Origin: Bacilli bacterium
GTDB taxonomy: Bacteria; Bacillota_I; Bacilli_A; RF39; UBA660
Reading direction: 5' to 3'
Assembly (NCBI GenBank): GCA_017476885.1
Contig: JAFUYX010000039.1
Coordinates: forward strand, 1 to 46,557
DNA: 46,557 nucleotides
A program made the translations under genes and the position numbers. The notes under the pieces were generated by a model, which saw only the letters and a program-made list of their open reading frames with translations, was not told the origin of the DNA and did no database searches. Below, one piece after another: positions 2,564 through 44,705 of this stretch (position 1 is its first letter; each line of letters starts with the position of its first letter).

Positions 2564-4758
2564 AAAAAGTAATATTAAAAGTGGAAGGAATGAGTTGTAG
2601 TGCATGTCAAAATAGAGTTGAAAAGTATTTAAATCAACAAGATGGAGTAAGTGCATCGGTAAATTTAGTTATGGCACAAGCACTCATAGAATATGATGAA
2701 GAAAAAGTATCTTTATCCGATTTAGATCGATTTATTGAGGAAGCGGGATATAAAAGTGCTGGAATATATCATGAAGAATTAGATGAAAAAAAGGATAATA
2801 CAAAATATTATTTAATAGGTTTTGCTTTTTTAATTATTGTCATAATGTATATTTCTATGTCACATATGATAGGATTTCCAGTAATACCGTTTTTCCATAG
2901 GATTCATCATCCGATTCATTATGGTGTAGCTTTATTTATATTCACAATACCATTCCTTATATTTGGATTTGACATTTTAAAAAGTGGAATAGTTAAATTA
3001 ATTCACAAAAGTCCTAATATGGATACTTTAGTCACTATTGGAGTTTTGGCAAGTTTTATTTATAGCATAGTTAATTTAGTATTAATTTTTTTAGGAAATA
3101 ACATGTTAGTAGAAAATTTATATTTTGAAAGTTCTGCCATGATAATTTATTTTATAAAACTTGGAAGATTTATCGATAAAAAATCAAAAGAAAAAACGAA
3201 AGAAGCCATTAAAGAATTAGTTCAAATAACACCACAAAGTGCAATTATTAAAACTAAGAGTGGCGAAAAAGAAGTAACAATCGATGAAGTTAAAAAAGGA
3301 GATATTTTAATTTGTAAGCCTGGCATGAAAATTGCTGTTGATGGAGTAATTACTAGTGGTGAAACTCATTTAGATGAAGCCTTTATAACAGGAGAATCTT
3401 TTCCCGTAAAGAAAAGTAAAAATGATAAAGTAATTGCGGGTTCCATTAATATCGATGGTTCTATTGAGTATCAAGCAGAGAAAATTGGACCAGATTCCAC
3501 AATATCTGAAATTGTGAGATTAGTTGTTGAAGCAACCAGCACAAAAACACAATCACAAAGATTAGCAGATCAAGTGTCAGGATATTTTGTTCCAGGAATA
3601 ATGATTATTGCTACTATAACATTTATAAGTTATTTATTATTAGGTTATCCATTTAATGAATCAATTATTTCATTTGTTACTGTTTTGGTGGTAGCTTGTC
3701 CTTGTGCTTTAGGGTTAGCCACTCCACTTGCAATCGTTGTCAGTGAAGGTGAGTGTGCAAAAAAAGGAATTCTAGTGAAAACCAGTGAAACATTAGAAAA
3801 TGTAAATAAAATAGATACTATAATTTTTGATAAAACAGGAACACTTACATATGGTAATTTAAAAATATCTAAAATTTATAATTATTCTCAATATCACGAT
3901 AAGGAAATACTTCATATTGTGGCTGGTTTGGAGAATTATAGTACTCATCCAATAGCTAATGCATTTAAAGACTACTATGATTCTAAAATTAAAGTAAGTA
4001 ATTTCCAAAATATTTCTGGAGTAGGTTTATTTGGAAATATCAATAAAAAAGAATTTTATGTTGGTAATAATAAATTATTTAAAAAACTAGATATTAAAAA
4101 TGAATATTTAAAAGATGAAAAAGAATTAATAGAAAATGGCAATAGCATTATTTATGTATTTGAAGACAATAAGGTAATAGCATTAATTGGAGTAAAAGAT
4201 ATTATTAGAGAAAATGCTAAAGCTACTATTAAAGAATTAATTAAACTAAATAAAGAAGTCATAATGTTATCTGGGGATCATGAAACAACGGCAAATATGG
4301 TTGGTAAAGAACTTGGGATAAGTAAAGTCATTGCTAATGTACTTCCTAATGAAAAAGAGAAGGTAATTAAAGAATTGATAAATAATAATCATAAAGTAAT
4401 GATGGTAGGAGATGGAATCAATGATGCTCCGTCCCTTGCAAGTGCTACTATTGGAGTTTCAGTCAATAGTGGAACAGATATTGCAGGAGATTCAGCCGAT
4501 GTGCTATTAATGCAAGATGATTTATCTAAAATCATTTCCTTGTTTGATGTGAGCAAGAAAACGGTAAGAATCATAAAACAAAATTTATTTTGGGCATTTA
4601 TATATAATATTTTAATGATACCTTTAGCAATAGGGGTATTTAAACCATTAGGATTAAGTATTACTCCTATGATAGCAAGTATTTCAATGACTATCAGTAG
4701 TTTGTGTGTGGTATTTAATTCTTTAAGGTTAAGGAGAAAAGGCTTTTTAAGAGATTAG
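2560..4758 (+). CDS. copA: Copper-translocating P1B-type ATPase
   Basis: N-terminal HMA domain (GMSCSACQNRVE). CPC transmembrane motif (ACPCALGLATP). DKTGTLT phosphorylation site. GDGINDAP hinge. Confidence 0.95.
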   Translation: MKKVILKVEGMSCSACQNRVEKYLNQQDGVSASVNLVMAQALIEYDEEKVSLSDLDRFIEEAGYKSAGIYHEELDEKKDNTKYYLIGFAFLIIVIMYISMSHMIGFPVIPFFHRIHHPIHYGVALFIFTIPFLIFGFDILKSGIVKLIHKSPNMDTLVTIGVLASFIYSIVNLVLIFLGNNMLVENLYFESSAMIIYFIKLGRFIDKKSKEKTKEAIKELVQITPQSAIIKTKSGEKEVTIDEVKKGDILICKPGMKIAVDGVITSGETHLDEAFITGESFPVKKSKNDKVIAGSINIDGSIEYQAEKIGPDSTISEIVRLVVEATSTKTQSQRLADQVSGYFVPGIMIIATITFISYLLLGYPFNESIISFVTVLVVACPCALGLATPLAIVVSEGECAKKGILVKTSETLENVNKIDTIIFDKTGTLTYGNLKISKIYNYSQYHDKEILHIVAGLENYSTHPIANAFKDYYDSKIKVSNFQNISGVGLFGNINKKEFYVGNNKLFKKLDIKNEYLKDEKELIENGNSIIYVFEDNKVIALIGVKDIIRENAKATIKELIKLNKEVIMLSGDHETTANMVGKELGISKVIANVLPNEKEKVIKELINNNHKVMMVGDGINDAPSLASATIGVSVNSGTDIAGDSADVLLMQDDLSKIISLFDVSKKTVRIIKQNLFWAFIYNILMIPLAIGVFKPLGLSITPMIASISMTISSLCVVFNSLRLRRKGFLRD

Positions 4759-32754: not shown

Positions 32755-34167
32755 ATGAAAAGTGTTCTATTAAATATTCATGATAAGCAAAAAGAACTGG
32801 ATAGAACTTTTGATGAGATTCAAGAGCATCAAAAAAATTATAATTCTTTTGTTACTCTTTTAGAAAAAGTACCTTTAAAAGAGGAAACTTCTTCTTTGTT
32901 AAGTAATGTGTGTTATGCCCTAAAAGATAATTATTCTACAAAAGGTATCTTAACTACGGCTTCCTCTAATACTTTAAGAGATTATATTCCACCTTTTAAT
33001 TCTACTGTTTATGAAAAACTAGAGGCTGCTGGGGCTATCTGTGTTGGAAAAACAGTTTTAGATGAATTTGGAATGGGTGGAACTGGGACGACAGGTCATA
33101 CTGGTGTTGTTAGAAATCCTTTTGATACGAGTCGTATTGCTGGAGGGTCTAGCGCTGGTTCTTGTGCTGCTGTGGCAAGCGGTTTAGTTCCTTTTGCTAT
33201 TGGTTCTGATACTGGCGATAGTGTCAGAAAACCAGCTGCTTACTGTGGAATTGTCGGGTATAAACCTACTTATGGAATGATTTCTAGATGGGGGATGTTG
33301 CCTTTTGCTAGTTCTTTAGATCATGTTGGAATTTTTACTCGTAGTGTGTTAGATGCTGCGATTGTAGCAGATGCTTTAAAGGGAAAAGATGAGAAAGATA
33401 TGACCACTTGGGATTCTTCTTCTATTCATTTGCAAGAATCAGTAGAAAATTCTAAGGATCAAAAATATAAATTATTCTATATTAAAGAGATAGTGGAGGA
33501 AGAAAATTATTCTAATATCAAGGAAAATCATCGTCAAGTGATTGAGAACTTTAATGCGGTCTTGGAACATTGTCAAAAGAATGGAATTTTGGTAGAAGGT
33601 GTTTCTATAGATAAGGATTTACTTGCTAAAATTCCTTCTGTTTATACATGTATTTCCTGTGCTGAGGCAACTAGCAATATGTCAAATTTAACTGGTATTT
33701 CTTTTGGGCCAAGAGAAAATGGTTCGAAAATTGATGAACTTATGACAAACTTTAGAACTAAGAATTTTTCGCCATTGATTAAGAGAAGATTTGTCATTGG
33801 CTCTTATGTATTACAAAGCGAGAATCAAGAAAAGTATTTTGTTAATGCACAAAGAGTTCGCAGACTTTTAGTTGAAGAATTAAAAAAATATTTTCAAGAG
33901 TATGATGGGCTTATTTTACCATGTTCTTCTAGTATTGCTAGTAAAATTGAAGATGCGAAAGATATGATGAAGAAAAGTGATGATTTAGCAATTTTAGAAA
34001 ATCATATGGCTCTAGGAAACTTTGGAGGATTTCCTAGCATCACCATTCCTTGTGGCAAGGTAGATGGTATGCCAATTGGGTTAAATATTACTGGAAATGT
34101 TTATGAAGATGAAAAAGTACTTTCTTTGGCTTCTAGAGTAGAAGAAATCATTGAGGAGGAGGTGTAG
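32755..34167 (+). CDS. gatA: Glu/Asp-tRNA amidotransferase subunit A
   Basis: Amidase signature GGSSAGSCAAVASG...GSDTGDSVRKPAAYCG. The ATG at 32755 follows GGTGGTGGA. Confidence 0.9.
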   Translation: MKSVLLNIHDKQKELDRTFDEIQEHQKNYNSFVTLLEKVPLKEETSSLLSNVCYALKDNYSTKGILTTASSNTLRDYIPPFNSTVYEKLEAAGAICVGKTVLDEFGMGGTGTTGHTGVVRNPFDTSRIAGGSSAGSCAAVASGLVPFAIGSDTGDSVRKPAAYCGIVGYKPTYGMISRWGMLPFASSLDHVGIFTRSVLDAAIVADALKGKDEKDMTTWDSSSIHLQESVENSKDQKYKLFYIKEIVEEENYSNIKENHRQVIENFNAVLEHCQKNGILVEGVSIDKDLLAKIPSVYTCISCAEATSNMSNLTGISFGPRENGSKIDELMTNFRTKNFSPLIKRRFVIGSYVLQSENQEKYFVNAQRVRRLLVEELKKYFQEYDGLILPCSSSIASKIEDAKDMMKKSDDLAILENHMALGNFGGFPSITIPCGKVDGMPIGLNITGNVYEDEKVLSLASRVEEIIEEEV

Positions 34168-35589: not shown

Positions 35590-35617
35590 AAAAATCCGAT
35601 ATTTTCGGATTTTTTTA
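35587..35617. terminator. Bidirectional terminator shared by gatB and the XRE gene
   Basis: Stem ATCCGA/TCGGAT flanked by A8 and T6. Confidence 0.8.
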
Positions 35618-35836
35618 ACCTTTAGGATAAGGTTTTCTTTGATTGGTGAGACTTAACAAGTAATCTAGTGACACTCCATAGAAATTTGCTAGAATTATTA
35701 ATTTGTCGATAGGAATGACTCTGGCTCCTGTTTCATATCTTGAGTATTGTACTTGATTAATCTTTAAAACAGCAGCGATTTCTTTTTGAGTCAAGTCTCG
35801 ATCCTTTCGGATTTCCCTTAATCTTTCAATATTCAT
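35615..35836 (-). CDS. XRE-family helix-turn-helix regulator
   Basis: LTQKEIAAVLKINQVQYSRYETGARVIPIDKLIILANFYGVSLDYL is a classic HTH_3 sequence. GGTGAG RBS before MNIERL. Confidence 0.85.
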   Translation of the reverse strand: MNIERLREIRKDRDLTQKEIAAVLKINQVQYSRYETGARVIPIDKLIILANFYGVSLDYLLSLTNQRKPYPKG

Positions 35837-36028
35837 ACATCTCACCAAATTCATTGTGCCATACTTTTTAACTTTTATGTTTATATTATAACCGAATTGG
35901 GATAAAAAATCGACAGTTTTATTTTTTTTGTATACTTTATTCTGTTTATTATATTATATTTTATTTTATATCCTTGATTCTACAGACAAATAATGTTATA
36001 TTATATTTATAATAGAGGTGTATGAAAA

Positions 36029-38095
36029 ATGAAGCAAAGACTAAATTATAAAAAGAAAGTGATTTATTTTGGGATAATAGGTGTCCTTTTGCTCATAGGA
36101 GTATCCTATGCCATCTGGCAATTAAATTTTACTCAGGATAGTTCTAATACTTTATCTGTTGCTTGTTTTAGTGTGACTTATACTGAACAAGATAACATCT
36201 CTCTTTTAAATACTTATCCGATGCTCGATAGTGAAGGAAAGAATCTAACACCTTATCAAGTTACGATTAAAAATAATTGCAGTGAATACGGTGCTTATCA
36301 AGTGAATCTAGAAGTGTTAAATACTACGACTTTAGATAGTGCATTTGTTAAAATCATGTTTGATGAGCAAGATCCAAAATTATTAAATTCTTATACTGCA
36401 GTAGAAAAAACTTTAAGTGATGCTACTTCTGCCTATAAAATGACTACAGGGTATTTAAAGCCAAATGAAGAGAGAACCTACACTTTAAGACTTTGGCTTG
36501 ATGAAAATGTTACTTTAGAAGACCATGTCGAAGGAAAGAAGTTTGCTTCCAAAATCACGATTGCTAATACCTATAAAGCAAGTGCTCCAACATCTTTAGA
36601 AGAATGTGAAGCACAGTACGGTGAAGGGGCCGCTATTTGTAATATCATAGCTAGTGCTGACCCGACTAATTCCAAATGTTTGCAAGTTAATGAAGATGGT
36701 TCAATTAAAGATCCATATTCAACAACAGAAGAACCAATAATCTGTACTATGGAAGATGATTATGGAACTTCTTATTACCTAAGAGGAAATCATCAAGATA
36801 ATAATGTCAAATTTGCTAACATGTGCTGGAAGTTAGTCAGAGTAACTGGAAGTGGAGGATTAAAACTCATCTATAATGGAGATTTAGATGCCAATGGCAA
36901 GTGTACAACAACATCAGGAGAGCACTCAGGATTTGCAGGATTTGCAGGACAAACTTTGTCCTTATCTGGAAATAAAGTATATGGAAGTTCTTACACCAAA
37001 GAAGGAACTACTTACACCTTAACTGATACTTCTACATTAAACTGGACTAACGATTCAGCAAGTATCATAGGAAAATATACCTGTGGAGATACGAATACTT
37101 CTTGTACTACTTTATATGTTGTTACAGGAGAATATAGTTCAAGTCAAGGCTATGCTTTAAAACTAGACCAAAGTACCAATTATGCCCAGATAGGTACGAG
37201 TGCATTTAATTCAAGTTATAACTCACCAGCCTATGTAGGATATATGTATAATGATGTCTATACGTCTAATAGTAAAAGCTTATCATCTAATACAAATAAC
37301 TATTACTATGGGGAGTCATTCACCTACACAGGAGGAACCTATACATTAAATAATACAGTACAATTTGCTGATGTTTCAGACAGCACAAATCAAACAAACT
37401 TAAATACTCATCATTATACCTGCTTTAATGCAAGTAATAATACCTGTACAGAATTGTATTACATCTATTATTTAAGTGGAACAACTCCATACTATATCAA
37501 ACTCAATGGAAACGAAACAGGACCTGAAGCTTTAAACAAAATGGTAACTAATAATGATATTAATGTAAAAAATAGTCACATTAAAGGAGCCATAGATTGG
37601 TGGTACGAACAAAATATTAAGAATACCGAATATGAAAGTAAATTAGAGGATACGGTGTTCTGTAATGACAGGACCGTAGATGCCCTAGGAGGATGGAGTG
37701 AAACAGGAAGTTTAAGTAGCTATTTATACTTTAATGCATATAATAGTAAATATTATTTAAAATGTCCAAATAAAAGAGATGCGTTTACAGTAAGTGATGG
37801 TAATAAAGGAAATAGTGCCTTAACATATCCAATAGGGCTATTAACAATAGCAGAACATAGTTTAATAGGAAATTATACAGCTAATAAAACAGGAACTTAT
37901 TATTGGTCCTCTGCGCCTTCCTATTTCATCAGCTACAATGCTATTGAGAGGTACGTGGACTCGACGGGTTCTTGGTACAGCAGCAACAATGTGCTCAATT
38001 CTTTCGGCGCCCGGGTGGCTCTTTCCCTTCGCCCAGGCACAACGTTTAAAAGTGGTGGAGAGGGAAGTGCAAGTAATCCATACGAAGTAGAATAA
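36029..38095 (+). CDS. Large secreted or cell-surface protein of unknown function (688 aa)
   Basis: N-terminal anchor/signal KKVIYFGIIGVLLLIGVSYAIWQ (SipW/TasA-like Y-A-x-W). Rich in Cys, Thr, Asn and Tyr. The C-terminus YYWSS...G...FGARVALSLRPG...GGEGSASNPY resembles CLec/DUF1566-type ends. Confidence 0.75.
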   Translation: MKQRLNYKKKVIYFGIIGVLLLIGVSYAIWQLNFTQDSSNTLSVACFSVTYTEQDNISLLNTYPMLDSEGKNLTPYQVTIKNNCSEYGAYQVNLEVLNTTTLDSAFVKIMFDEQDPKLLNSYTAVEKTLSDATSAYKMTTGYLKPNEERTYTLRLWLDENVTLEDHVEGKKFASKITIANTYKASAPTSLEECEAQYGEGAAICNIIASADPTNSKCLQVNEDGSIKDPYSTTEEPIICTMEDDYGTSYYLRGNHQDNNVKFANMCWKLVRVTGSGGLKLIYNGDLDANGKCTTTSGEHSGFAGFAGQTLSLSGNKVYGSSYTKEGTTYTLTDTSTLNWTNDSASIIGKYTCGDTNTSCTTLYVVTGEYSSSQGYALKLDQSTNYAQIGTSAFNSSYNSPAYVGYMYNDVYTSNSKSLSSNTNNYYYGESFTYTGGTYTLNNTVQFADVSDSTNQTNLNTHHYTCFNASNNTCTELYYIYYLSGTTPYYIKLNGNETGPEALNKMVTNNDINVKNSHIKGAIDWWYEQNIKNTEYESKLEDTVFCNDRTVDALGGWSETGSLSSYLYFNAYNSKYYLKCPNKRDAFTVSDGNKGNSALTYPIGLLTIAEHSLIGNYTANKTGTYYWSSAPSYFISYNAIERYVDSTGSWYSSNNVLNSFGARVALSLRPGTTFKSGGEGSASNPYEVE
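37903..38044 (+). other. GC-rich, adenine-depleted patch; candidate DGR variable region
   Basis: 53 of 90 bases (59%) are G or C across 37951-38040, against an AT-rich background. A 36-nt run has no A (37999-38034) and a 20-nt run has no A (37903-37922). Adenines cluster in the AGC TAC AAT GCT ATT GAG AGG TAC and TAC AGC AGC AAC AAT codon blocks. Confidence 0.45.
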
Positions 38096-38098
38096 TAT

Positions 38099-38476
38099 CT
38101 AACCTAAGAGATTCATATCTTCATTTGTTCTAGAAAATATTTCAACCAGAATGGTTGCAAGGCCTGCTAAAACAAAGAAAATATTTGTGATAAAACTGAC
38201 ATCATTTAAGATGTCTTTTTTTAGATTGACGTGTCCATGTTCTTTTTTATAACGAATGTAAGCTCGATATAAAAAATAAAGATAGATAAAAAAAATGATT
38301 ATTCCATTATCAAGATTTAGAAAATGAAATGCTTGATAGTCTTTCTTTTGATGATGAAGAGTATATTCTCTTTCAAACTTATTTGAGAGGATGGCCATAA
38401 TTGATAAGAATATATAAATAATCCAAATACAATCTTCGATTTGTAAATTTTTTAAAGTCTCTTCTAAATCACTCAT
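38099..38476 (-). CDS. Small membrane protein (3 TM), unknown function
   Basis: 125 aa with three hydrophobic helices. Divergent from the next gene. Confidence 0.5.
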   Translation of the reverse strand: MSDLEETLKNLQIEDCIWIIYIFLSIMAILSNKFEREYTLHHQKKDYQAFHFLNLDNGIIIFFIYLYFLYRAYIRYKKEHGHVNLKKDILNDVSFITNIFFVLAGLATILVEIFSRTNEDMNLLG

Positions 38477-38526
38477 AGTTTATTTTATGATGTTGTGATA
38501 TAATACTTTCAAGGAAGTGAAGAGGT

Positions 38527-38826
38527 ATGAAAAACAAATATCAAAGAATGAGCAAAGAAGAGAAAGCCAAAGTGAAATCCAAATATTATGCAACAGAGAA
38601 AGGCAAAGAGATGAAAGCAAGATTAGATCGTTTAATAGTGCTTGGAATCATTGGAATTTGTTTTTCAATATTCTTAGTGGTGAGTGGTATTCTAGCAAAT
38701 AAAATAGAGTGGTATACTTGGGTAGTAGCCATTACATTATTAATTTTTTCAATTGTTTACATCGTTGGTTCTATTACAATTAGAGGAAAGGTTTTAAACC
38801 AATTTGCAATTAAAAACGTAAAATAA
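38527..38826 (+). CDS. Small membrane protein (2 TM) with a basic N-terminus
   Basis: 99 aa. Lys-rich N-terminus followed by two TM helices. Preferred over the overlapping frame 38517-38702. A weak terminator lies at about 38846-38872. Confidence 0.5.
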   Translation: MKNKYQRMSKEEKAKVKSKYYATEKGKEMKARLDRLIVLGIIGICFSIFLVVSGILANKIEWYTWVVAITLLIFSIVYIVGSITIRGKVLNQFAIKNVK

Positions 38827-38930
38827 GTGTAAACTTATACTAAAAATTGTCGAAAATGGCAATTTTTTTGCTTTTAAAAAAAGGAAATCCCCTTTTTCCC
38901 TTGAATATATATAAGTAGGGGAGGAATTAG

Positions 38931-40646
38931 ATGCCAAGAATAGATGGCGATGTCGTAGAAAATATTCGAGCCAGTGCCGATATAGTAGAGATCATTAGCA
39001 AATACATTCCTCTCGAACAAAGAGGAAAGAACTTTTTTGGGGTTTGTCCTTTCCATGCCGATCATTCCCCATCTATGAGTGTCTCAAGAGAAAAACAAAT
39101 GTATAAATGTTTTTCTTGTGGTGCTGCCGGGAATGTTTTTAAATTTGTAAGTGACATCGAAAACATAAGTTACTCTGAGGCTATTGCCAAAGTGGGTGAA
39201 TACATTGGAATTACAGTAGAAGTCTCTTCGAAATACCAATCCAAAAGTAAATACGAAGAAGAATATCAAATCATGAATCTGGCAATGATGTATTATCAAA
39301 ACCTATTAAATTCAGAGTATGGGAAAAAAGCAAAAGAATATTTAAAAAAACGGGGTTTAAATGAAGAGATGATGAAAGATTTCCAGATGGGACTTTCCAT
39401 CAGTGGAAATACTTTACTATCTTTTTTAAAACAAAAGAATTATACAGAAGAACAATTACAAAACCTAGGACTAATTAATGAGTCCTATAACAAATATCAT
39501 GATATATTCATAAATCGAATCATTTTTCCAATCCACAATCCGCAAGGAAAAGTGGTAGGATTTACCGCCAGGGTCTATGAAGGAAAAGAAGAACCAAAGT
39601 ATCTAAACAGCAAAGAAACAGTCATATTTAAAAAAGGAAACATCCTATTTAACTATCATAGAGCAAGAGATGCCATTCGAACTTCAAAAGAAGTAATTTT
39701 AGTAGAAGGAAATATGGATGCCATTAGAATGGCAGCCTCAGGAATCAAAAACACGATTGCTCTGATGGGTACAGCCATGACAAGTGACCAAGTAAATATG
39801 ATTCTAAAACTAAGAGTTCCTGTGGTATTGATGTTTGACAACGATAATGCAGGTCTCCTTGCTACAAGAACCAACGGAAGGCTTTTGCAAAACGCCGGAG
39901 CAGAGATTAAAGTCGTTCGTTTAGAAGGGGAAAAAGACCCAGATGAATACATCATAAATCATGGAGTAGAAGCAATGAGAGAAAACATTAAACATGCCAT
40001 CTCCTTTGCCGAATTTGAATATCTCTCTTTAAGACAAGATAAAAACTTGAAGGATAGCAAAGAACTCGCTTCTTACGTCAAAGAAGTATTAAAATCAGTA
40101 GAAAAAGAAGATGACATCACCATCGATGTAACCCTTCATAAACTAGTGGATGAGTTTCACTTATCCTATGAAGTCTTAAAAAAAGAACTGGAAGATAGAA
40201 AAACACCCATAAAAGTAGAACTACCTAAAAATATGGATGAAAAAGCAAAAAAAAGGAAGAGTTCTTATGATATTAGTGCTTGCCATGTATTATACGCAAT
40301 GATGAATGACGTGAAATACATCAAAGAATTCAAAGAAAAATTAGGATTCTTTAAAGAACAGAAATATCGAGATATAACAAGTGAAATCCTAGATTATGCA
40401 AGCCAAAGAACTAGTATCAACCTTGCAGATTTCTTGAGTTATGCTGAAGAGAGTCCTCTAAAAAAAGAAATTTATGAAGTCATTGAGAGTATAAATGAAC
40501 TAGATTTTGAAGAAACTAGTATAGAGGAGTATCTTTATGTCATCAAAAAAGAACTACTAGAAAGTGAAATCAAAAGGTTAAAAGAAGAACAAAGAAATTG
40601 TCTTGATAGTACGCAAAAAAGTGAAATTGGAATGAAAATTGTATAA
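38931..40646 (+). CDS. dnaG: DNA primase
   Basis: CHC2 zinc finger [13 protein letters not shown]...[22 protein letters not shown]...DNDNAG. AGGGGAGG RBS. Confidence 0.95.
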
Positions 40647-40690
40647 ATAAAGAAAAAAATAGAAGAAATGAAGAAAGAAGTGTGTTGAAA

Positions 40691-41986
40691 ATGACAAAAT
40701 TTGAAATGAAGAAAAATGAACTCATTGAAAAAGGACAAAAAGAAGGATTTATTTTAATATCAGAAGTAGTGGAGATTGCTAAGGAATGTAAGGTAAAAGC
40801 AACAGAAGTCAAAAAATTTCAAAAAGAAATTGAAGAGTTAGGAATCGAATTAGCAGATCGAATTCCTGAAAAAAGAAAAGAACCAGTAAAAGTAACTGAA
40901 ATTAAATCTTTTGAAGATCGAAAAAACGAACTCATAAAATTAGGATTGGAAAAAGGAAGAATTACCTATGAAGAACTAGCTACAGCCCTAAAAGGATTAG
41001 ACGTTGATAACGATTCTCTAGATGAATTATATACAGCCCTAGTAGATAATGGAATAGCTGTTGTTGGAGAAGATGATGAAAGTACTTCTGCTCAGGGAAA
41101 AAATAGTTCAGATGAGCCCATTATTTTAGACGATGCCGAAATTACAAGAGACGTGAACATCAACGATCCAGTTAGAATGTATCTAAAGGAAATTGGTCGT
41201 ATTTCATTGTTAACCCCGGAAGAAGAGATGGATTTATCCATTCGAGTTGCCAATGGAGAAGAAGAAGCCAAAAATCGTTTAGCAGAATCAAACCTTCGTC
41301 TAGTAGTTAGTATTGCCAAACGTTACGTTGGAAGAGGGCTTCTATTCTTAGATTTAATTCAAGAAGGAAATATTGGACTTATGAAAGCCGTTGATAAATT
41401 TGATTATGACAAAGGGTATAAATTCTCTACCTATGCAACATGGTGGATTAGACAAGCCATTACTAGAGCCTTAGCAGACCAAGCAAGAACCATTCGTGTA
41501 CCAGTACACATGGTAGAAACCATCAACAAAATGGCGCGTATCCAACGTCAATTAACTCTAGAGTTAAACCGCGAACCAAGTGAAGAAGAACTAGCTAAAA
41601 AGATGGGAATCTCCGTTGAAAAGGTTCGTGAAGTTATCAAGATTAGTCAAGATCCAGTATCTCTAGAAACCCCAATCGGAGAAGAAGATGATTCTCATTT
41701 AGGAGATTTTGTCAAAGATGTAAACGCAATGACTCCAGAAGAATATGCAACAAACGAAATCTTAAAAGAAGAAATCCGTTCCGTACTAGAAACACTTCAA
41801 GAAAGAGAACAAGAAGTACTAGAACTTCGTTTTGGATTAATTGATGGAACGAGCCATACTCTAGAAGAAGTAGGACGTAAATTCAACGTAACCCGAGAAA
41901 GAATTCGACAAATTGAAGCGAAAGCCCTTAGAAAACTAAGACATCCATCTCGTGCCAAAAAACTAAAGGATTTCATGTCTGACTAA
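40691..41986 (+). CDS. sigA: Primary RNA polymerase sigma factor
   Basis: Region 2 [37 protein letters not shown]. Region 3. Region 4 [30 protein letters not shown]. Follows dnaG. Confidence 0.95.
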
Positions 41987-41988
41987 TC

Positions 41989-42648
41989 ATGAAAAGTAAA
42001 AGATTAAAAGCTATTCTAGCCTATTTAAGTCCTGAAGATTGTATTATTGATGTAGGATGTGATCATGCCTACATAGCAATTGAAATAGCAAAATTAGGGT
42101 GTAAAAAAGTCCTTGCCACGGATATTTCTCAAGGTGCAATCCAGATTGCCAAAAGAAATATCGAACAACAAGGGCTATCCAAAATCATAAAAACACAAAA
42201 ATGTGATGGCTTAAAAGGCGTTGATGAAAATGCATACAACACAATTGTAATTGCTGGAATGGGGGCTTCTACTATGATGGACATCTTAATCCCACCCTGT
42301 TTAAAAAGGATTGAGAAAATCATTTTACAATCCAATAACGATTTAGAAGAACTGCGTAGGTTTATGACTCAATTAGACTATCACTTAGCAGACGAAACCG
42401 TGGTGTTAGAAAAAAAACATTACTATACCATTATGAAATATGAAAAAGGAAGAAAAGAACTAGAAGAAATTGAATATCAATTGGGGCTATATAAAAGTGA
42501 AAATAAAGATTATTATGAATATTTAAATCATAAGTTAGAAGAGATTTTAGAAAAACTTCCAACCGAACAAGATGAAAAAAGAGCCTATATTGAAGCCCAG
42601 AAAGAACGGTTGCAGATTTATTTAAACAAAGAAAATCGGACGATTTGA
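41989..42648 (+). CDS. trmK: tRNA (adenine22-N1)-methyltransferase
   Basis: IIDVGCDHAYIAIEIAK SAM motif. VIAGMG. YqfN-like position after sigA. Confidence 0.8.
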   Translation: MKSKRLKAILAYLSPEDCIIDVGCDHAYIAIEIAKLGCKKVLATDISQGAIQIAKRNIEQQGLSKIIKTQKCDGLKGVDENAYNTIVIAGMGASTMMDILIPPCLKRIEKIILQSNNDLEELRRFMTQLDYHLADETVVLEKKHYYTIMKYEKGRKELEEIEYQLGLYKSENKDYYEYLNHKLEEILEKLPTEQDEKRAYIEAQKERLQIYLNKENRTI

Positions 42649-42879
42649 AGAAGAAACAGACGCAGTTTCTTCTTTTTTGTCACTTTTACGAAGTGGAACC
42701 GGCTTATTTTTGGGAGCAAGATACTTTTGAGTACTGCCAAGAATGTTTTTTGCACTTTCAATAGCCGGTTGAACCTTAGAAACCAAAGGAAGGACTTGAT
42801 TGGCAAAATTAAGAGTTTTGCTCACATGTCCAATTAATTTTGATATATTAAAATGTGGATGAGACAAACCAGGGTACAT
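42622..42879 (-). CDS. YqfQ/VrrA-like small protein
   Basis: AGGTGA RBS before MYPGLS. The core LIGHVSKTLNFANQVLPLVSKVQPAIESAKNIL resembles the YqfQ family. Synteny with trmK/sigA. Confidence 0.4.
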   Translation of the reverse strand: MYPGLSHPHFNISKLIGHVSKTLNFANQVLPLVSKVQPAIESAKNILGSTQKYLAPKNKPVPLRKSDKKEETASVSSSNRPIFFV

Positions 42880-42933
42880 ACACATCACCTACTATAGAAT
42901 ATGCAAAAACAAGGAATCTTGAGTACTAGTTTT

Positions 42934-43782
42934 TTATAAGAAAATACTAACAATCGATAGAAAAGCAAAGAAAACAAAGAAACCATGAGCATTCCTAAAG
43001 TCTTTTTTTAGAGAAACACAACTAATAAAAAGCGTAAAAAACACAGGAATTAAAAACGCAAAAGAAAGAATATTTTCCAGATTTTCCATGAAATTAAATA
43101 CTTTGATTTCTTGTAATAAGGAATAAAGAGGATGATACGCCAGGGCATATTCATTAGTTCCTAAAACCAAAATAATAAACATTCCTACGATAAAAACAAG
43201 AGTACTAGAAATAAAATAGGATTTGAAAGAGTAGTGTTTTTCCAACAATAAATAGGGAATACTTAAATAAATTCCAAATACAATTGAAGATAGAAATATA
43301 TCAGCGAAGGACGAAGTAAAAACAGGCAAAATATAATCTACATGAACATGAGAGATGAGACCGATAAAAATGAGAAGATAAAGTACCAACAGAATAGGAA
43401 TGCAAACTTTTGCAAGAGAATTCAACGTACCATAGTGTAGTTTCGAAATTCGAATGAGTAATAATGCCAATGGAAGTAGCAAGAATGCTCTAGGAGTCTG
43501 AATAAGAAAGAAAGTGCCAATAAAATGTAGAATGAGAGATAAAGAATACAAAAACATGAAACTATGAAAGCAAATTTGAAAAAAACGTCCTATCCATGAA
43601 TGCTCAAAAGTTCCAACTTTACTTTTTTTGACTAGGAAAAGAATCAAAAATCCAATCAAAATTCCAAGAATCATAGAAACCCAACTATCTTTAGATGAAA
43701 TCCTAAGAACCGTAGAATAACCCGTACTTAAGAAAAAAGTACTACCTAGATAAAGTGCTAAATAACAATTCTTATCCTTCAT
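42934..43782 (-). CDS. Spore germination protein, GerAB-type permease subunit (short, 282 aa)
   Basis: Polytopic. SKDSWVSMILGILIGFLILF is typical of GerXB. Overlaps the gerAC-like stop. Confidence 0.65.
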   Translation of the reverse strand: MKDKNCYLALYLGSTFFLSTGYSTVLRISSKDSWVSMILGILIGFLILFLVKKSKVGTFEHSWIGRFFQICFHSFMFLYSLSLILHFIGTFFLIQTPRAFLLLPLALLLIRISKLHYGTLNSLAKVCIPILLVLYLLIFIGLISHVHVDYILPVFTSSFADIFLSSIVFGIYLSIPYLLLEKHYSFKSYFISSTLVFIVGMFIILVLGTNEYALAYHPLYSLLQEIKVFNFMENLENILSFAFLIPVFFTLFISCVSLKKDFRNAHGFFVFFAFLSIVSIFL

Positions 43783-44705
43783 GAAGAACCCCTTTCTAAA
43801 TCAAGAGAAACATGGACACTTTTTTCTTGAAAAGGACCCATATCTATTCTAGTCAAATCATAGATTTTTTTACGAATTCCTAAGACATCACAATTCTTTT
43901 TCTGTAGTTTCTCCAAAAAGTGTTGATAGTCCTTGGATAAATCATCAGAATCTTTATCATCCTTCAGATCCAAAGTGATATCAATGGTAGAATCATGATA
44001 GGAAAGGACAGGTTTTTGATTTAATACGGACTCCAAAAAAGAATTGCTTAGACTTTGAAAAGATTGATATAAATTCGATTCTTGTTCACTAAAATAAAAA
44101 GAAAGTTGATCAGAAGAAAAGGCTGCTAAGCCAGTAAGTGAGCATGTTCCTTGCTTTTTTTGGGCCACGTTAATTACTGCATCAATCCCTGTATCTAAAA
44201 TCGTATTAAAAAAACTTGTGAAAGTTTGTTTAGTAGCAAGGGAGGAAGATTGTTCATTAAAATCTAGTTGCTCTTGAATGGAGGTAGAACAATAAGTGGA
44301 GTTTTGCTCAAAGAACTCATCAAAAGAACCTTGAATCAAAGTCGGATAAAAAGTATTGTGAATCCGATGATTTTGGAAAAGATAAACAATGGTCTCTTTC
44401 ATTTTCCAAGTAGCCAATTCTTCACCAAAGAATACCACCCTAACATGGGAAAGGGTAGGTTCCTTCCTCAAGGATTGATTTAACCTTTGAAAAGCACTTT
44501 CTAAAGTATCTCCAGTCTCAGAAGAAATCACGGGCTTGTCACTCTCTTTTTCTTTAGAATCTACCATTTCATAAAGAACTTGATATCCTTCCTCTATTTT
44601 ATTAATTCCAATTCCTAAAACAACATAATTATTATTAAGTTCCTTATAATCATAACAGCCCGTAAAAAAGAAACAACAAAATAAAATAATGATTCCTTTT
44701 TTCAT
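43779..44705 (-). CDS. Spore germination lipoprotein, Ger(x)C family
   Basis: Lipobox FFTG-C followed by YDYKELNNNYVVLGIGINK, the GerAC N-terminal pattern. Confidence 0.75.
   Translation of the reverse strand: MKKGIIILFCCFFFTGCYDYKELNNNYVVLGIGINKIEEGYQVLYEMVDSKEKESDKPVISSETGDTLESAFQRLNQSLRKEPTLSHVRVVFFGEELATWKMKETIVYLFQNHRIHNTFYPTLIQGSFDEFFEQNSTYCSTSIQEQLDFNEQSSSLATKQTFTSFFNTILDTGIDAVINVAQKKQGTCSLTGLAAFSSDQLSFYFSEQESNLYQSFQSLSNSFLESVLNQKPVLSYHDSTIDITLDLKDDKDSDDLSKDYQHFLEKLQKKNCDVLGIRKKIYDLTRIDMGPFQEKSVHVSLDLERGSS

Follow-up and report, generated by a model that had tools for sequence, protein, structure and literature searches.

The 46,557-nucleotide (nt) stretch of contig JAFUYX010000039.1 (positions 1-46,557) from an uncultured Bacilli bacterium (NCBI GenBank assembly GCA_017476885.1), referred to in its full length as the window, carries on its forward strand an open reading frame (ORF, 36029-38095) for a 688-residue protein, secreted or at the cell surface, whose N-terminus holds a membrane or signal segment. 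Near its 3' end the gene switches to a patch rich in guanine and cytosine (GC) and poor in adenine, which sequence comparisons identify as the variable region (VR) of a diversity-generating retroelement (DGR). In DGRs, a reverse transcriptase (RT) and the Avd protein copy the RNA of a template repeat (TR) into complementary DNA (cDNA), misincorporating nucleotides opposite template adenines, and this cDNA then takes the place of the VR, which lies at the 3' end of a target gene. An earlier note on the bare sequence had proposed such a VR with TR, avd and RT out of view, and this proposal is now borne out by cassettes beside homologues of the gene, by the register of the patch with their TRs, and by differences between paralogues that fall at TR adenines. 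The patch is a true DGR VR that is not adjacent to its cassette, being either the trans target of an unseen second template or a recently orphaned copy.

The 142-nt patch (37903-38044) lies in frame within the final 190 nt of the ORF. Its GC content is 54.2% (the earlier note had estimated about 59%), against a mean of 31.4% (sd 4.9%) for 142-nt windows across the whole stretch, and it ranks first in GC, above the tRNA cluster at 21.2-21.5 kb. Adenine makes up 17.6% of the patch and 35.1% of the window. The two adenine-free runs, exactly as first described, measure 36 nt (from 37999; only one run in the window is longer) and 20 nt (from 37903), and the codons that had been named as rare are indeed uncommon, several of them ranking with the rarest of the window, with usages per 1000 window codons of 0.6 for CGC and 1.4 for CGG, next to 2.9 for AGG, 3.9 for GGC and 4.1 for GCG. 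Over the 47 codons of the patch, the GC content at third codon positions (GC3) is 0.66, compared to 0.23 for 10,404 background codons and 0.22 for the remainder of the same gene, and A occupies 4% of third positions, compared to 34% in the background.

A homologue search with the protein, whose exact 688-residue sequence is not on record in an exact protein look-up, returned 1137 family matches, nearly all of them from metagenome-assembled genomes (MAGs) of uncultured 'Bacilli bacterium' and from rumen and gut metagenomes. Several paralogues occur per genome, for example seven in the MAG IJ743, and three lie on one 233-kb contig. The family shares a C-terminal frame, Y-W-x-S-A-P ... F ... A-x-E-R-x-V ... 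G-x-W ... V ... G-(A/V)-R-P-x-x-S-L-(K/R)-P-G, and between the fixed positions its members use hardly any residues other than N, S, T, I, Y, F, C, D, G, A, V, H, R, P and L. In the DNA, variable codons have the form NNY (any base twice, then a pyrimidine), with the third base fixed. The VR residues at variable positions all fall within the 15-residue set that can be reached from AAY codons, and K, E, Q, M and W are missing from them.

No RT is encoded within 10 kb of three of the homologues (L001-L003). Others lie next to complete or partial cassettes. A template pattern predicted from the family (TTC AAY AAY AAY AAY GCT AAY GAG NGN AAY GT) was scanned against 185,579 species genomes and gave two hits, both of which are TRs. 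At locus L008, a family member with a VR is followed by a TR 210 nt downstream, a 122-residue gene and a 498-residue RT, and the 2.6-kb contig L007 holds a VR, a TR and a small gene. A metagenome scan with a frame-only pattern added L010, where VR and TR are 395 nt apart and avd and RT come next. Protein look-ups led to L015 (TR at about 3373-3495, avd at 3669-4022, RT from 4009) and to L022 (TR at 1071-1192 and a complete 485-residue RT), and the cassette of L025 has a TR identical to that of L022. The cassettes of L010, L015, L022 and L025 have the same architecture as that of L008, with TRs of the general type of the window VR.

The cassette RT carries the DGR hallmark IGAMSSQ together with YMDD, and its best match in the PDB is the 328-residue RT of entries 8ub7-8ube (E 2e-23), which we take to be the Bordetella phage enzyme bRT. 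The proteins of 108-122 residues encoded between TR and RT match the PHROG family 'Avd protein of DGR' (E 1.6e-4 and 5.6e-4). By these sequence criteria, the sister cassettes are canonical DGRs in the order target-TR-avd-RT.

The TRs have 43-45% GC and 32-33% A, and every VR examined has 50-58% GC and 12-25% A, in genomes of 28-32% GC. Outside its adenines, the TR scaffold is GC-rich, as in GGCGGGGTCCGGCCGGCT at the 3' end, and its AAY codons end in C. The mechanism operates on a scaffold, here GC-rich and with C or T in the third position of AAY codons, that is copied faithfully, and on adenines that can turn into any base, leaving a VR that is A-poor and GC-rich in a genome of 31% GC. The composition of the patch follows from a GC-rich scaffold whose adenines were replaced by random bases, and not from foreign DNA.

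The core of the VR (37904-38025, + strand; 122 nt or about 41 codons, beginning with the Trp codon of YYWSSAP and ending in GCT CTT TC) aligns without gaps, 41 codons to 41, to both TR22, the template repeat of L022 and L025, and TR15, that of L015. Its mismatches to TR22 fall at 19 of 39 adenines and at 13 of 83 other sites (Fisher p=1.8e-4). TR22 and its own adjacent VR in L022 are mismatched at 16 of 39 adenines and at one of the 83 other sites, and live VR/TR pairs in the clade have one or two such non-adenine mismatches in 83. The window VR, whose mismatches are enriched at the adenines of TR22 and TR15, is therefore homologous to these templates but is not a copy of either.

A second VR from the same species shows what the cognate template may have looked like. 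The contigs L019 and L023 belong to one MAG, GCA_017479965.1; L019 is the window locus, with 97.6% identity over 6.4 kb, and L023 holds the paralogue P0044, which has 65% protein identity to the window protein and unrelated neighbour genes. Over 47 VR codons, the two genes differ 12, 10 and 1 times at codon positions 1, 2 and 3, respectively, against about 5, 4 and 15 times in the flanking 47-codon stretches (Fisher p=7e-5 for the third-position deficit). In the 122-nt cores, the adenines of TR22 account for 19 of the 22 sites that differ (p=7e-9), and the two scaffolds, which differ at about 3 of 80 non-adenine sites, agree as tightly as live VR/TR pairs do. Synonymous sites are homogenised, and first and second positions are scrambled at template-adenine sites, which is how VRs look when one template has written both; gene conversion alone does not give this pattern, nor does selection alone. 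The full shared scaffold with the L023 VR (37904-38053, + strand) spans the whole GC-rich patch and would mark the extent of copying from a 'group-B' template. This template, TR-B, can be tentatively reconstructed from the two VRs as TGGTCCTCTGCGCCTAACTATTTCAACAACAACAATGCTAATGAGAGGTACGTGAACTCGACGGGTAATTGGAACAACAGCAACAA[A/T/C]GTGAACAATACTTTCGGCGCCCG[A/G/T]GTGGCTCTTTC[A/C/T]CTTCGCCCAGGCAC[A/G]ACG. In this genome the window target stands apart from its cassette, and it is one of at least two paralogues of the species with VRs written from one TR-B.

The same comparisons bear on explanations that do without a retroelement, which are improbable even when taken together. One of them holds that selection on a binding loop rich in Gly, Ala, Arg, Pro, Ser and Tyr, aided by chance, shaped the patch, and that gene conversion homogenised the VRs of the paralogues. 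The VR is in fact rich in Ser, Tyr, Asn and Gly, and conserved flanks that the paralogues have in common could seed conversion; however, a choice of amino acids leaves the GC-ending synonymous codons, rare in this genome, unexplained, conversion would also have wiped out the 22 differences at positions 1 and 2, and the differing sites are predicted by the adenines of an independent TR (p=7e-9, as above), all of which makes this account very unlikely. Another, which the earlier note had also entertained, is that a piece of a gene from a higher-GC donor was inserted at the 3' end. The GC step is abrupt, as such a mosaic would have it, and the gene departs further from its counterpart in L015 in its C-terminal third than in its N-terminal part (80% and 91% identity). 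This origin is nevertheless rejected as next to impossible, because the patch has no match among 50,697 phage and 72,556 plasmid records, is homologous to and in register with the TRs of its own family, shares its GC-rich scaffold with every family member in genomes of 28-32% GC, and varies mainly at codon positions 1 and 2 on TR adenines.

Within a DGR origin, the most likely present state of the window VR would be that of a trans, or non-adjacent, target of an unseen template, rewritten rarely, and we lean modestly towards this reading. Trans action exists in the clade, as L009 and L012 have VRs that depart from TR15 at only 2 of 83 non-adenine sites, while the 8-10 kb downstream of them encode no RT; in L012, the VR gene is followed by a terminator and a tRNA-synthetase gene. 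A target that is live, or was so until recently, is also supported by a GC3 of 0.66 that has not decayed towards 0.23, and by a scaffold shared with the paralogue as tightly as in live pairs. By implication, the clade has more than one template type, as the TR that accompanies the window strain is non-cognate. For the window gene to be such a target, TR-B would have to persist in the genome and to go on rewriting the window copy, and both of these we infer.

Several results weigh against this reading. The 46.5-kb window holds no TR-like copy of the patch above chance (blastn, 7-nt words) and encodes neither Avd nor RT (tblastn with the Avd and RT proteins of sister cassettes), in agreement with the absence reported in the earlier note, and a scan of viral contigs with the family pattern gave 0 hits. 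The JGI metagenome scan used a pattern that fits TR-B and yet did not recover it; that scan returned six loci with a single TR, that of L010, which is of group A rather than of the window type. L022 and L025, the cassettes from two samples that also hold the window strain, both carry the non-cognate TR22, and the 13 of 83 non-adenine mismatches of TR22 to the window VR include the GC-rich 3' end. Three of the 22 differences between the window and L023 fall at non-adenine TR22 sites, which could be drift after template loss. Finally, the window, L018, L019 and, over the part that it covers (from 37978), L021 have one and the same VR, so that no diversification is seen.

Much of this would be expected of an orphaned, or fossil, VR, that is, one written by a DGR at an earlier time whose cognate template was then lost or replaced, leaving a static coding region with a compositional scar. 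Its identity in four assemblies, the recovery of only the non-cognate TR22 from samples with the window strain, the lack of TR-B in the JGI scan and the three scaffold differences from the paralogue at non-adenine TR22 sites all fit such a history, as does the orthologous locus. L015 (100-1744) and the window (35609-37261) share 90.8% nucleotide identity over a segment that comprises an HTH gene, the intergenic region and the target's first 1.2 kb, which makes L015 the same locus in a close relative. There (L015 1-4675), the gene is present in an 851-residue version with a 540-nt internal insertion and a different type of VR and tail, followed by TR, avd and RT. The counterpart in the window (35609-38500) has the 688-residue gene and no cassette; it continues with a 125-residue ORF on the minus strand and then dnaG. 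The 3' third of the window gene is of a different paralogue type, with 80% identity to L015 (91% in the N-terminal part) and another tail, and because the VR and tail of L015 differ in this way, the 3' end of the window gene has been exchanged between paralogues by recombination. The template may have been lost by recombination between TR and VR or between paralogues, like that which removed the cassette here, and at the loci L016 and L017 a cassette has been erased at its TR.

At these two loci (L016 5478-5668 and L017 3855-4045), the upstream flank is that of the TR-bearing sister loci (..GTTAACCTAGTACTATGTCGTTAAAATGAGTTGCC), and it runs into a VR-like copy that is diversified, poor in A and joined to a gene tail (..PGTNFKAGGDGTASNPYEVE*), then into a terminator and uvrC. 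Both avd and RT are gone from this spot, and the sequence suggests that the cassette was lost when its TR recombined with a remote VR.

An orphaned VR is thus quite possible, although we hold it to be the less probable state. Its scaffold would not be expected to match that of a paralogue VR (about 3 differences in 80) as closely as live pairs match (1-2 in 83), nor its GC3 to stand at 0.66, unrelaxed towards 0.23. The searches for TR-B were also incomplete: the scan of 185,579 genomes is mute on TR-B because its pattern required AAY where both VRs have TAC, and ENA contigs lay outside the DNA-pattern scans. The comparison of strains, in turn, has little power, as the flanks are also identical over about 800 nt and the copies share a very recent ancestor at this segment; the window and L019 have 0 mismatches over 800 nt around the VR and 154 further on. 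Invariance across strains had been named beforehand as a finding that would speak against a DGR. The four identical assemblies go part of the way to it, and they count against rapid ongoing diversification, not against a DGR origin. Of the remote target and the orphaned VR that the earlier note had offered as options, both stay in play, with the trans target preferred.

The alignment of the window (37742-44190) to L019 is a mosaic, with 0 mismatches from 37742 to 38541, about 1% up to 42 kb and as many as 9% per 200 nt after 42142, which suggests recent recombination between strains and further weakens the comparison of the VR across them. Three contigs of the window strain break at or in the VR: the end of L004 and the start of L018 overlap by 55 nt just 5' of it (37827-37881), and L021 begins in its middle (37978). 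These breaks are consistent with branching of the assembly graph at sequence shared by paralogues, or with heterogeneity of the population. At the target adjacent to a cassette, there are signs of recent activity. The VRs of P0002 and L022, which come from different samples, differ in half of their length, which suggests that this VR was rewritten recently. At the protein level (L022 588-709), the first half is identical (YCFNYYNARERYVASDG) and only the second half differs, a hint of recent and possibly partial retrohoming.

At the G+C-rich 3' end of the window VR, the stretch TTC GGC GCC CGG GTG GCT (38003-38020, + strand) is a candidate counterpart, by its position, of the initiation of mutagenic homing (IMH) element of other DGRs. 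It corresponds in position to GGC GGG GTC CGG CCG GCT, where the homology between TR and VR ends in the cassettes, and about 7 of its 18 positions differ from the counterpart in TR22. A hairpin search 3' of the VR gave nothing convincing within 250 nt.

The sister cassettes have further features of their own. In four of five comparable cassettes, the TR and the VR next to it are unequal by exactly one codon, gained or lost inside runs of AAC (L007, with the TR at 561-679 and the VR at 126-247; L008, with the TR at 2529-2650; L010; and L015), and in L022 they are of equal length. Such one-codon differences beside AAC runs are known and have been put down to slippage (Wu et al. 2018, PMC5758913), and they seem to be unusually frequent here. 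The RTs of the clade are about 490 residues long and have a C-terminal extension (L008 3175-4671, RT residues 358-399, and many RT homologues) that matches Pfam PF01624, MutS domain I, at E 1.6e-5 and above the gathering score. The spacer of about 170 nt between TR and avd (L022 1193-1371; L015 3490-3668; L010 2288-2465, minus strand; L008 2651-2825; L007 681-879) is conserved between cassettes whose RTs share only about 57% identity. RNAalifold predicts 42 base pairs in it, 7 of them with compensatory changes, and the cassettes have no Rfam match; by this model, the spacer is probably the structured spacer part of the DGR RNA. Downstream of the RT, cassettes that are otherwise nearly identical diverge, with an AAA_14 ATPase gene in L022 (3304-3849) and an unrelated ORF in L010 (1-330, minus strand), so the cassette sits in differing contexts. 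No second TR follows the RT of L022, where the ATPase gene is found instead.

The window gene itself is part of the chromosome rather than of a mobile element, as its neighbours are housekeeping genes, with gatA, gatB and an HTH regulator on one side, and then dnaG and rpoD. The regulator gene (35615-35854, minus strand), assigned to HTH_3 by Pfam, also precedes the target in L015 and serves as a marker of synteny. Further GC-rich spots of the window at 33075, 21396 and 18048 were considered and set aside as gatA, tRNA genes and an ordinary ORF.

The fold of the VR-bearing domain is less clear than its origin. The window protein has no Pfam match, even at E<5, and 8 of 54 homologues match PF19789, DUF6273 (best E 1.3e-5). 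AlphaFold2 models of residues 420-688 (predicted local distance difference test score, pLDDT, of 87) and 539-688 (pLDDT 81) were used in three Foldseek searches, none of which gave a match below E=0.001. The top match was the immunoglobulin A (IgA) peptidase of T. ramosa (9qa6, E 0.019, probability 0.98), whose N-terminal domain is a DUF6273 (PMC12402451). A phage DUF6273 protein followed at E 0.4, with phage DUF6273 and DUF1566 proteins spanning E 0.4-0.8, and C-type lectin domains (CD23, mannose receptor) matched more weakly, at E 2-3. DUF6273 is itself described as a C-type-lectin-like target domain of DGRs in gut phages (PMC10743442). The domain appears to be remotely related to DUF6273, and on the models a C-type lectin or DUF6273 fold is plausible for it. 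Of the CLec/DUF1566-like domain that had been proposed at first, the DUF1566 assignment does not hold, DUF6273 being the nearest family, and the weak Foldseek matches do not convincingly show a C-type lectin fold. The N-termini of the family (36029-36160 in the window) begin with a basic stretch, which is combined with a hydrophobic segment and the conserved motif SYA(I/Y)W, and two homologues match Peptidase_M73 (camelysin/TasA-like), which suggests, from sequence features, a SipW-type signal peptide and a TasA-like N-terminal domain in the family.

A wider picture can be sketched, although we would put it forward only as a tentative and rather unlikely one. The lineage may run a chromosomal, multi-template DGR that rewrites some 7-10 scattered surface-protein paralogues in trans, with the window gene as a live target of TR-B, and recombination between TR and VR and among paralogues may move or erase the cassette and reshuffle the pairing of templates and loci. 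If this were true, programmed variation of the cell surface would arise from a DGR and gene-family recombination together.

The system is of a known kind, found here in an uncultured rumen bacterium, and it shows a DGR serving a surface-protein family with many paralogous members in an uncultured lineage of rumen and gut Bacilli. A large metagenome survey could not detect remote DGR targets on short contigs (Roux et al. 2021, PMC8144416). The window VR was recognisable from its composition alone, even with its retroelement far off, and belongs to the class that large surveys miss. The interest of the case lies in how large and dispersed the target family is, in the implied presence of at least two template types, and in cassettes that were visibly gained or lost at orthologous loci. 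Should TR-B exist and be active, the lineage would offer a good natural system for how one RT picks among many trans targets and several templates, and for how recombination creates and strands VRs; if TR-B is absent, the window gene carries a clean and datable stranded VR.

Among described systems, the nearest are the DGR of Treponema denticola, with TvpA and about seven scattered targets, and other non-phage DGRs of lineage 4 (PMC5758913). Non-adjacent or remote targets have been reported for 45 of 372 DGRs, Treponema having seven, and targets more than 100 kb away are confined to non-phage DGRs of lineage 4 (PMC5758913). As in these, a chromosomal DGR here serves paralogous surface proteins with a C-terminal VR, some targets lie far from the RT, one-codon indels occur beside AAC runs, and there are some substitutions at sites other than A. 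Unlike T. denticola, the host is an uncultured, low-GC, spore-forming 'Bacilli bacterium' of the rumen and gut, the cassette order is target-TR-avd-RT, and the cognate TR of the window copy is unseen, the TR that is seen being non-cognate. The VR-bearing domain also differs, being DUF6273-like, whereas TvpA is a C-type lectin resembling formylglycine-generating enzyme (FGE)-sulfatases.

With the DGR of Bordetella phage BPP-1 (mtd-avd-TR-brt), the cassettes share adenine-specific mutagenic retrohoming, the AAY codon design, a G+C-rich end of the VR and the pair of Avd and RT, the RT having its best PDB match in the 8ub7 series. The BPP-1 system, in contrast, is phage-borne, has a single adjacent target and a TR between avd and brt, and its target Mtd is a C-type lectin trimer. 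Its IMH and cruciform were defined experimentally, whereas the counterparts here are only candidates, by position. The third comparison is with the DUF6273 targets of gut-phage DGRs, such as the tentaclins and Mtd-like proteins (PMC10743442) and those of Faecalibacterium prophages (PMC11792537), to which the VR-bearing domain appears remotely related. In contrast to those phage tail genes, the genes of this family are chromosomal and stand among housekeeping loci, and their products are much longer proteins with an N-terminal membrane or signal segment, of which the window copy falls below every Pfam threshold.

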